Shown here: in pieces, positions 32,519 through 35,500 of the stretch | Layout: each line of letters starts with the position of its first letter | Position numbering within the stretch: the stretch's first letter is position 1 | Source of the DNA: Flectonema sp. DT1601 | Lineage: Eukaryota | Direction: 5' to 3' | DNA length: 64,000 nucleotides | Assembly: GCA_964019425.1 (NCBI GenBank) | Contig: OZ025796.1 | Span: 1,116,001-1,180,000 of the forward strand | Program-made: the position numbers and the translations under genes | The notes under the pieces: model-generated | Database searches by the model: none | Told to the model about the DNA's origin: nothing | What the model saw: only the letters and a program-made list of their open reading frames with translations

Positions 32519-35500
32519 TTACAAGGGGGTGGAGTCACCGTGAACGTCATCAGCAGAACATCTCCTTCGATTGTAACGATATCTTGATGGAGGGGTTCGT
32601 TTTTTCAGAGTTGAACGCTCAGACTTTCTCGGCGGAGTTTCATTTTCCTCATGTTCTTCTGTGTCTGGCGGACTCAAACCTTCTGCCCATGAAGCTAATT
32701 GGAACTTCAGGGCCGCAATTTGAGACCGTGCCAAGGCGAGTTGAGCATTTAAATCGCTCGCCAGTCCCGTTAACATCATGGATTGCTCAAGCTGCTCTGC
32801 GTGAGTTGTACACCGTTGGTGATTCAGCTCCGAGAGGCGAAGTTGGGCATCCAGAAGTTGTTCTGAGAGCTCTGCCGCTTTCTCGTTTGTTTCGAGAGAG
32901 TCATCTACTGCTCGACAGTAATTCTCGAGTAAATCAATCCTACCCTCGGACCATTGTCTCGCAATAGGTGTATTCTCTTTAACGGAGATAACGTGACTCT
33001 CTTGTCGTAAAATCTTGGTCGGCGTGCGGTCGAGAGCTTCACTCTGCGGCATTGTCGGAGGAATTGAGGCTAGAGGACAAAGAGGGGTGATATAATTAAG
33101 GGTAGGGATAAGGGGTTTAATAAGAGGAGTAAAAAGACTACTCGTAGTTGTAAAGAGCGAGAGGTAGTTCTTTGCTATCTTCATCATAGCAACAGATTCA
33201 TACAGAACGGGGGTTCGGGGGGAAACTTGTTGACTAAAGTGGGTCATACGGGGACGCGCGGCACGCAAACTCTCGACCTCCTGTTGAGTATAGAAAAGTC
33301 TTATTTTACTTTCTCTTTCCTCATTACATTTGGTCTCCAATTCGTTCGACAGAAGAACAAACCTTTGATGGTAATTAAAGAGCGCCAATTCCGATAGGTC
33401 TGCTCTCTGAGTCAGATTTGCGAGCTCACGTTTCCTGTAATCTTCCACTAAGTCATATTGTCGAACTAGTGCAGAAAGAGAAGTCTTCGATTCATCGCGT
33501 TCTGCTGTTAACCGTTGAATTACTCCTTCCAGAAGTTCATATTCTTTTCTATCTTTTTCAATAATTAAAACAGGGGGCGCAGGAGGAAGTGAGGATGGAT
33601 CCTGGTTGGTAGCTTTGATCTCAACAGGTAATCCATTTAGTAACTGCTTGTCTTTCTCGAGGGAGGCTGACATCGCATTAAAGTAAAATAAAAATAGAAC
33701 ATAAAAAATTCGTTCTTTCATTTGCTCTAATTCGTTTTCTAAAATCTGGCATTTCAAGGAAAGTTTCAGCCTTAATTTTCCTTCTTTTTTTTTGTACAAG
33801 GGGGTTTGAGAACCCATGTCAGATTGAGTTCTTATCACTATAGCGAAATCAGCAGGAAGTGTTTGCGATCCCGTTGACATGAGTTCAGGTGGGGGAGTCT
33901 GGAAAGAGATGGAAGAAATAGAAGAGAATGACAAGGAGAGTCCAGTGAGCTCATCCTCATCTAACAAAACAGAAGGGGCCGGGGAGGAAGAACCATTGGC
34001 AATAAGTAGAATAGAAAGAGCCGATGCGTAACAAGTTTGCCAGATAAAACATTTCTCAAGCCACGATCTTTCAATGGTGAGCTTTTCGATCGTTTTCAGT
34101 TTTGTTACTTTGTGGATTTTGACTTCTTCCACAGGGAAGATTTCTTTACCATCTTTTATAAAACTTGCAGTGGCAGGTTCTTCTTTAATGCTGCGCATTA
34201 GTGGTCTTGAATGCCACGTGGGGAGGTTCCTCGTCTGGAACAGAACATATGAGCACTGTCTGGCGATTCTGGTGCATTCACAAAATAAAGCTTTTGTTGG
34301 TGCTAAAGGTGAACCGATGTGACGTGTCCAGATGTTCAGCTGGTCCATGCAGATGTTTCCTCGTACGCCAACTTCAATAGTAAAAATGTTACAGTCGAAG
34401 CCATTAGCGATGATCGAGTCTCTTAGCTTTAGGTATTTCTTTTCCTTTAAGACATGAGAGGTTTCGAAACGATCTTCATTTGGACACGTCAGCTCCAGAA
34501 TCAGTGCTCTTTTCGCAAAAAAAGAATAAATAAAAATGTCTGGTCTTAGAGAGGACGAGACATGGCACACTTCAAGAGGAACAATTAGGCGGTTATCACC
34601 GACATCGTCGAGGATGACCCAATCATTCGCTAGTGAAAGTTCGCCTGTCTCTTTAGAAATTCTTTCTAGGGGTTTATTTTCCCCTGTTTTTAAAAAAGTT
34701 TGAGAGGGAGGCGGGAGGTTTTCTTTTCTTTTGTTGGCTTTTATTATCAACTCTTCCAAGAAGATAACAATGCGTTTTAGAACGCTGTCGTGACGCCACG
34801 TGAACCTCCCTTGTGTTAAAGAGACAGGACAGCCTGTTAAGACATGCCTGAGGGTAGGATTCACTTTGCCACACAAAACACAATTTTGGTCCACATTGGT
34901 GATGTTCCACCTCTTTAAATTATCTTGTGAGGGGAGGGTGTTTGTAACCGCTTTCAGTTGAAATGAGATATAGGCAGGATTTCCCTCCCTAAGTACCTTA
35001 TTCCAGGTGAAGTCGTTTATCATACATTTAGACCACTCCTTCCACTGACCTTGGACTTGTAATTTATTCAAAGAGTTCAGTAGTTCATCTGTGGCTTCCA
35101 CTTCAAAACGCTTAAGGAGATCGGGGCGAGTAGTACGTAGATCGCGCAATCGGTGACCAAGACCAGCTGATTGCTTCGCAAGAGAACGGTAAGAAAAAAA
35201 CTTAATAAGGCGCTCCCACTCAGCAGAAGCTGAAAACTTTTTCGACCAGTTGGACGATTTCTCCATAATAACATTGTAGACACCGTGCATGTCAGAGTCC
35301 TGTGAGGATCTGAGGATGTCTAGTTTAATTGATTGCGCTTGTTTATATAGCGTCTCAACTCTTTTGTGTCTGAGACCAACAGTGTTCTTTGAACCGGTAA
35401 AAAGGATGACTGTGTTCGCAGAGCGGACAAATCCCCACCATTTCTTCAAAAAAGGTTTAATAATTTTGTCCATTTTTTTGGCAAAAGGGAGAGATAAGTC

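Follow-up and report, generated by a model that had tools for sequence, protein, structure and literature searches.

How can the protein of an R2-group retrotransposon run on for 559 residues behind its nuclease, and what could these residues do for the element? R2-group proteins, regarded as minimal machines that end at the nuclease, are under development as tools for inserting genes. The locus that raises the question lies in a 64-kb stretch of DNA (the window), to which all positions below refer. The cohesin STAG, GTPase and UNC-93 genes at 1–13000, together with an LSU rRNA fragment, mark the window as eukaryotic. Host-like ORFs, long and without interruptions, are densely packed in 1–17906, every one of them on the minus strand (STAG/SCC3, ankyrin, MMR_HSR1 GTPase and UNC-93; four ORFs have no Pfam match), and this run of ORFs ends abruptly at a repeat pile. 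From about 18000 onward the window is a pile of nested repeats, in which the element resides.

The element is bounded by a 10-bp direct repeat whose only two occurrences in the window, at 26811 and 38087, enclose 11.27 kb:

26821–38086, minus strand: full-length non-LTR retrotransposon, about 11.27 kb, with the 10-bp direct repeat at each end
26811–26820, plus strand: target-site duplication TGGATTAGGA, 3′ side
38087–38096, plus strand: target-site duplication TGGATTAGGA, 5′ side, matching the 10-bp copy on the 3′ side
32519–37798, minus strand: single open frame, 1759 aa from stop to stop, first Met at codon 274
37391–37588, minus strand: two N-terminal CxxC...H...C zinc-finger-like motifs, seen in the sequence, upstream of the first ATG
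35669–36436, minus strand: reverse transcriptase (RT) with FADD motif (RVT_1 E 3.6e-26, aa 455–710)
34820–35017, minus strand: CCHC zinc-knuckle region, aa 928–993 (zf-RVT E 3.1e-6; C, C, H and C invariant in 55 rows)
34214–34561, minus strand: restriction-like PD-(D/E)xK endonuclease (RPD...ELT...K...EVG; catalytic-type residues invariant in 55 rows)
32522–34198, minus strand: in-frame extension, version A, 559 aa, starting at a Met directly after the last conserved residues of the nuclease
26821–32518, minus strand: 5.7-kb 3′ region with a 236-bp duplication, a satellite and a fixed 3′ end without poly(A)
31571–32026: the 236-bp duplication in the 3′ region
27231–30941: the 3.7-kb satellite of about 260-bp units in the 3′ region

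Read together, the flanks of the element form two halves of one decayed transposase, which we take from its motifs to be piggyBac-like. Since the target duplication encloses RT, nuclease, extension and 3′ region, all of these moved as one unit. The 3′ region is mostly satellite with long A/T runs. The same satellite also occurs at 24292–25900, 40847–43162, 47038–48118 and 50757–51650, and these outlying stretches may largely be truncated copies of the element. Other pieces are clearer:

19471–21490, plus strand: copy 2, 5′-truncated, with the extension and the start of the 3′ region, 98.4% identical
44799–49891, plus strand: copy 3, RT-region pieces at 44799–45087, 46248–47030 and 48510–49891, 99.9–100% identical
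47031–48513, plus strand: 3′-end piece of the same element, 5′-truncated, inside copy 3, 94–95% identical to the 3′ terminus
40445, minus strand: a further 3′ end of the element

Copy 2 picks up again at 23772–24659, beyond a nested insertion. Copy 3, split by nested insertions, stops short of the nuclease and is RT only. The 5′ end of the element occurs once in the window and the 3′ end at three places. The two additional 3′ ends and an RT-only copy at 99.9% identity point to an element that was recently mobile.

Other repeats share the pile. A second abundant one (19018–19467, 21511–22610, 38457–39648, 39853–39915, 41240–42071 and 45085–46247) has one end fixed and the other variable. About 100 bp of it are 76–79% alike to the 3′ region of the element at 31379–31486, a hint that it could be the 3′ end of a related family. 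Pieces of this second repeat also make up a tandem array at 51747–64000, with at least eight near-identical units of 1540 bp. A 189-aa ORF at 18316–18885 (minus strand) has no Pfam match; its His/Cys-rich start and its position suggest a piece of a DNA transposase. The LSU rRNA fragment, embedded among the repeats at 23150–23550 (minus strand), may be euglenozoan by its sequence and presumably spans the region of the R2 insertion site.

The element belongs to the R2 group. It has a single ORF with a non-LTR-type RT, followed downstream by a CCHC knuckle and then a PD-(D/E)xK nuclease; it has no AP endonuclease family by Pfam and no LTRs, and its 5′-truncated copies share a 3′ end. A profile of the element and 11 relatives found R2 proteins first (E 2.9e-84). 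The nearest relatives that we found are only 25–36% identical in the thumb–nuclease region. Across a 55-row alignment C/C/H/C, RHD, PD, E, K and E are invariant. A model of aa 905–1330 from these rows is confident over knuckle and nuclease (best R2 structure match E 2.4e-9), and its confidence drops right after RPL. The nuclease region is not the C-terminus, a position that is usual for the group but not strictly defining. The element is not of the R2 clade proper, which inserts into 28S rRNA genes: the full-length copy is inserted in the remains of a transposase, and the LSU rRNA fragment is uninterrupted over the stretch aligned. We take the element to be HERO-like by motif resemblance rather than by phylogeny with reference elements of that clade. 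HERO targets are mostly nonspecific or microsatellites; the three 3′ ends of the element lie in three different contexts, too few sites to define a preference.

At the other end of the protein, the first ATG of the frame lies downstream of both zinc-finger-like motifs (region 36980–38086), and a long pyrimidine run stands at the start of the 1759 codons. Making the N-terminus would, judging by the sequence, need non-AUG initiation or trans-splicing. A Pfam search of the zinc-finger-like motifs gave no match. An Rfam search of the 5′ region found no ribozyme, all matches being below gathering scores.

In the translated frame the nuclease ends with ...CSYVLFQTRNLPTWHSRPL and the extension follows. 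An earlier note on this DNA had reported that the frame continues past ...RNLPTWHSRPL, and it does: 559 more residues run from the ATG at 34198 to the stop at 32519–32521. The extension is in frame as described; its start is at 34198 rather than 34192. The other five frames contain 23–38 stops each across the extension, and the chance of 559 open codons at its composition is about 2e-14. GC by codon position is 0.51/0.40/0.39, highest at position 1 as in the coding body. No internal repeat was found in the extension. The second copy named in the earlier note is real and free of stops, but its homology begins at 19471 and not at 19533. Copy 2 has no RT or nuclease and is therefore uninformative on the fusion itself. 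The proposed comparison of copies gave 6 synonymous and 9 nonsynonymous differences between copy 2 and the extension (pN/pS 0.45, p = 0.11), so copy 2 alone does not demonstrate selection.

The extension can be divided as follows:

33638–33790, minus strand: predicted helix, aa 137–187 of the extension, holding the T-rich patch IFYVLFLFYF (low-confidence model)
33600–33625, minus strand: identity step at which versions A and B part, aa 196, about 33612
33260–33571, minus strand: predicted long helix or coiled coil 1, aa 210–313 (pLDDT 52–67 by block; 42–52% identical to version B)
32684–32968, minus strand: predicted long helix or coiled coil 2, aa 411–505 (pLDDT 42–64 by block; 50–70% identical to version B)
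32522–32641, minus strand: disordered tail, an acidic run and then TPxR and a basic patch (KKRTPPS), kept in versions A and B

The two long coiled-coil-like regions of the earlier note survive in part: long helices are predicted there, but the model is of low confidence (mean pLDDT 39.8, pTM 0.18, 7-row alignment) and a heptad scan gave an uneven result. The model consists of helices and loose linkers, with no globular core. AlphaFold readily draws long helices from shallow alignments. When the nuclease was modeled together with the first 130 residues of the extension, most nuclease blocks reached pLDDT 86–98 and the extension 32–64; because of this fall we count the extension as a separate module. 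A fold search with the extension model returned only vimentin-like rows at E>1, which we do not count as support. The nearest Atlas clusters include coiled-coil proteins, all with scores below 0.9. A complex prediction for two copies of aa 205–510, in which the alignment was not used, gave a score of 0.11 and a mark of 0.32, which we count neither for nor against self-association. The basic tail is present as had been described and could serve as a nuclear signal or an RNA contact.

A profile search of 1.84 billion representatives gave 18 matches, 17 of them pieces of version A or B and one a divergent fragment (P0061). No homologue outside the family was found in these representatives, Pfam, PDB, or metagenome and viral contigs. 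There was no match among proteins of 967–3079 aa, nothing significant among PDB sequences (best E 0.55), nothing above the Pfam cut-off (PPP1R21_C E 0.068), and no RNA-binding fold in the extension. All homologues of the extension seem to derive from one host lineage.

Within the family the extension comes in at least two versions. Version B (P0016, 558 aa) is fused to RT/nuclease in P0004, P0008–P0010, P0017, P0028 and P0030. Versions A and B are 63% identical overall, with 183 of 195 residues identical before the step and 174 of 364 after it (48%), and the RT/nuclease body beneath both tails is about 99% identical. The sharp step suggests that recombination near extension codon 196 put two old tails on one young body. 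A contig of one public sequencing run (X1) departs from the window at the same point, and its letters read as version B. Other variants are 77–93% identical to version B. P0061 is a third extension fragment, 39% identical in a pairwise alignment, which we used because MAFFT misplaced it.

Is a protein domain behind the nuclease peculiar to this family? The earlier note had assumed that RLE ORFs end soon after the nuclease, which is mostly true. A scan of metagenome contigs yielded 235 confirmed stretches of related sequence, of which 80 were retained, some of them near-duplicates (L014 and L017); the nuclease end is visible in 79 and a stop in 76. The stop follows within 25 residues of the nuclease in 54 of the 76 loci, within 26–99 in 15, at 148 in one, and at 359–379 in six. 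On the ruler of the profile the element has 562 aa after the nuclease, against a median of 12 in the 76 loci. Four of the six long loci carry a DarT domain (PF14487, E 1e-21 to 1e-25) and two a USP domain; in seven more loci such domains are broken or cut by the contig end. Among 11 related proteins, 10 reach the nuclease end; six of them stop within 25 residues, and four (P0034–P0037) carry 347–477 more with a USP domain (PF00443).

DarT-like domain in frame (PF14487): L014:1951–3087, L017:3062–4198, L018:2509–3627, L064:1880–3016
DarT-like domain, broken: L040, L043, L052, L059
USP domain in frame: P0034–P0037; L031:2333–3445, L072:1244–2320
USP domain, broken or cut: L003, L053, L061

The cargo of these relatives sits behind a low-complexity linker, at the same position after the nuclease. 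The Cys, His and Asp motifs are intact in all six full USP domains that were checked, and three of the four intact DarT-like frames have a Cys-rich tail. Neither PF00443 nor PF14487 matched P0001, P0002 or P0016, and a tblastn search of the extension against the 80 loci found no similarity. In another relative (P0043) the RT is interrupted just ahead of the ADD motif by about 90 inserted aa.

In a quick tree of 87 rows (a search without bootstrap, leaving out P0040, L046, L078, L079 and L080), the DarT-like rows fall into one branch (SH-aLRT 99) with three unlabeled rows inside; one row, L027, was labeled DarT-like by motif alone, with no Pfam match. The USP rows form two groups away from this branch, and USP was possibly gained in two separate captures. 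The element itself sits on a long branch whose position is uncertain. As the three cargoes are unrelated and their carriers fall on different branches, at least three gains are implied. Our best reading of the position behind the nuclease is a reusable cargo slot, filled here with a coiled-coil module, and we regard this pattern as the more striking part of the finding.

One could go further and argue that HERO-like elements possess an unrecognized cargo bay, filled independently at least three times (intact USP deubiquitinase, DarT-like DNA ADP-ribosyltransferase, exchangeable coiled coil), whose cargoes arm or scaffold the particle against the host; a DarT-like cargo would then mark single-stranded DNA at the insertion site. 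This wider proposal falls short of being probable. In the passages of the papers searched there is no description of a post-nuclease domain in RLE elements; the accessory domains described there lie upstream of the RT (PMC4640811, PMC13580325, PMC7650587, PMC3636483, PMC9004415, PMC10294476, PMC12503042). The earlier note had allowed that described HERO elements might already carry the extension; the same passages mention none. HERO families with USP or DarT may already be on record.

What does the coiled-coil module do? Our preferred explanation, which we hold tentatively and put slightly below an even chance, is that the selected extension acts as a built-in assembly scaffold that brings several copies of the protein onto the 11-kb RNA, as ORF1p does in LINE-1. 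Insertion of the RNA by RT and nuclease would follow the target-primed reverse transcription described for R2 (PMC12503042). From R2 biology, the extension should be dispensable for their catalysis. As a separate module behind a linker, it would self-associate through its coiled coils and package the RNA of the element, and the basic tail would drive nuclear import. We favor a scaffold for three reasons. First, R2-group elements have one ORF and hence no ORF1p (PMC3636483). Second, the RNA is unusually long. Third, a fast-evolving coiled coil with a basic end resembles ORF1p; L1ORF1p trimerizes through an essential, fast-evolving coiled coil and needs its basic terminus (PMC5940361). Most relatives have no extension at all, as the 54 loci with an early stop show, and a scaffold is therefore not generally needed.

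The main rival is that the extension faces the host. It would be a coiled-coil decoy or recruiter for a host protein of silencing, trafficking or chromatin, and conflict with the host would explain why it diverges fast and is exchanged. We consider this unlikely, although it deserves to be taken seriously. The other cargoes in the same slot resemble enzymes acting on host proteins or DNA, which points to a host-facing role, and the USP motifs are intact throughout. Distal tails that differ by half on a nearly identical body, together with the spread from the close variants of version B to P0061, are also what such a conflict would leave behind. However, no host donor or look-alike of the extension turned up in the 1.84 billion representatives, Pfam or PDB, and rapid evolution of a coiled coil fits the analogy with ORF1p, too.

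Third in rank is separate translation. The extension could be a protein of its own, made from its own Met through an internal start, trans-splicing, a shorter RNA or cleavage, its frame shared with the RT being incidental. The ATG of the extension coincides with the point at which relatives stop, the sequence of copy 2 sets in 4 nt after it, P0020 breaks into satellite at the same codon, and two database proteins (P0003 and P0016) are called from this Met. Gene callers, however, begin at any Met. The junction of copy 2 sits on a short likeness to the neighboring repeat, with no leader sequence visible. A break-point hot spot at the junction is unsupported: 35 protein ends are scattered over aa 1018–1710, one of them at 1200. 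Given this scatter, the break codon shared by copy 2 and P0020 is probably chance.

Eight public runs from eight studies contain part of the element, one of which (the best match) may be the source of the window itself. Contigs of four runs (X1, X2, X3 and X7) bridge 34198 with at least 31 letters on each side, and those listed show neither joints nor loose ends there. The 31-letter rule leaves the junction unbridged in X4, X5, X6 and X8, which is no evidence against the fusion; X5 falls short of the rule with 29 letters on one side. We examined 47 database proteins of the family: 19 cross WHSRPL and 18 of these go on with MRSIKE, P0020 being the exception; the proteins were collected through the extension or its clusters, so that 18 of 19 is not an unbiased count (for one cluster, 15 of 47 members are among the matches listed). 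The earlier note had named a stop after the nuclease in other copies, with neutral evolution downstream, as fatal to its claim; such a stop is not seen: 18 proteins continue in frame, and no bridging contig has a stop between the two parts. The fusion is the normal form of the family, and we consider a separately made protein improbable. We also rejected a stop–start overlap (TAATG at the junction, with the TAA in another frame), since the ATG shares its frame with the conserved nuclease tail and the bridging contigs contain no indel there.

A further possibility is that the extension is mere read-through into a former 3′ UTR or passenger that has hardly any function or none. Its stretches of low complexity and those rich in T or in Ser/Pro, the lack of a homologue elsewhere and the nonsignificant comparison between the two A copies would fit. 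Versions A and B say otherwise. Their alignment has 9 gaps, yet both stay in frame to nearly the same end, and GC peaks at codon position 1. We simulated neutral divergence from version A, by substitutions only, to the amino-acid divergence between A and B; the runs acquired 10.5 stops on average and none of 5000 was free of stops. Since both real versions are open, the extension is, as far as version B compared as a protein can tell, under protein-level selection. The differences between A and B are milder than simulated ones (mean BLOSUM −0.24 vs −0.65 ± 0.12). Identity is higher in predicted helices (111/199, 56%) than elsewhere (63/165, 38%; p = 0.001), a test that is not fully independent, the helix limits coming from a model built on both versions. 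Read-through is already largely refuted and very improbable. The accessory module of the earlier note is real, selected, family-wide, in frame and predicted to be rich in long helices.

The membrane targeting that the earlier note had suggested fares slightly worse still. The hydrophobic patches might anchor the particle to a membrane; the first patch (aa 50–68), within a predicted helix, has the best 19-residue hydropathy, 1.4, and some ORF1 proteins have been suggested to target membranes (PMC5940361). The patches exist but are weak. The usual transmembrane threshold is about 1.6, and no 19-residue window reaches it. IFYVLFLFYF is encoded by a T-rich stretch (22 of 30 letters are T), and P0061 has other residues in its place. 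In the region of the first patch A and B hardly differ, so that the conservation of this patch is uninformative. We regard a membrane anchor as highly unlikely. Finally, in a window dense with nested and truncated repeats one might suspect a chimera confined to one copy, or an error of assembly, behind the fusion. This is refuted by junctions bridged in four of eight runs from different studies, by the fusion of both versions and by the target duplication around the whole unit, and we give it practically no credence.

These natural fusions have consequences for the use of R2-group proteins. The 350–560 extra residues found after the nuclease show that the C-terminal end tolerates large fusions. 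The cargoes also hint at steps for which such elements may need help: particle assembly, protection from ubiquitin-driven decay and the handling of nicked DNA. Versions A and B amount to a natural swap of tails on a single enzyme, so that the role of the tail can be tested directly.

How does the element compare with known systems? Like the R2 group (CRE, NeSL, R2, R4 and Hero), it has one ORF with N-terminal zinc-finger-like motifs, RT, CCHC knuckle and PD-(D/E)xK nuclease (PMC3636483, PMC4640811). Many HERO families are nonspecific in their target according to PMC4640811; for the element no fixed target was seen among its three 3′ ends. In contrast to HERO and the rest of the group, where the nuclease region is the C-terminal part in the texts consulted, the element adds 559 aa and then a satellite-bearing 3′ region of 5.7 kb. 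R2 proteins are its best matches in sequence and fold (R2Tg 9dou/9nl3, PlaMe 9nl2, R2Bm 8gh6/8ibw; E 2.9e-84 and 2.4e-9). R2, however, targets 28S rDNA, and its protein has the nuclease region at its end (PMC13580325), whereas the element lies in a transposase remnant and carries the extension.

With LINE-1 ORF1p the element shares a fast-evolving coiled coil, here predicted, and a basic terminus (PMC5940361). Whereas the extension is fused, ORF1p is encoded separately and upstream and has RRM and CTD domains; searches of the extension by Pfam, PDB sequence and fold found no RRM or ORF1 family, and the likeness is an analogy only. NeSL and Utopia, with a Ulp1-like protease and RNase H, are likewise RLE elements carrying an extra domain. 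Ulp1, like USP, is a protease of ubiquitin-like modifiers. The domains of NeSL and Utopia lie upstream of the RT (PMC4640811), whereas the cargo of the element and of its USP- and DarT-like relatives comes after the nuclease. A further parallel is with these relatives (P0034–P0037, L014, L017, L018, L031, L064 and L072). Their cargo has a recognizable enzyme fold and that of the element does not, but they have the same RT–nuclease body and carry 347–477 aa of in-frame cargo at the same position.
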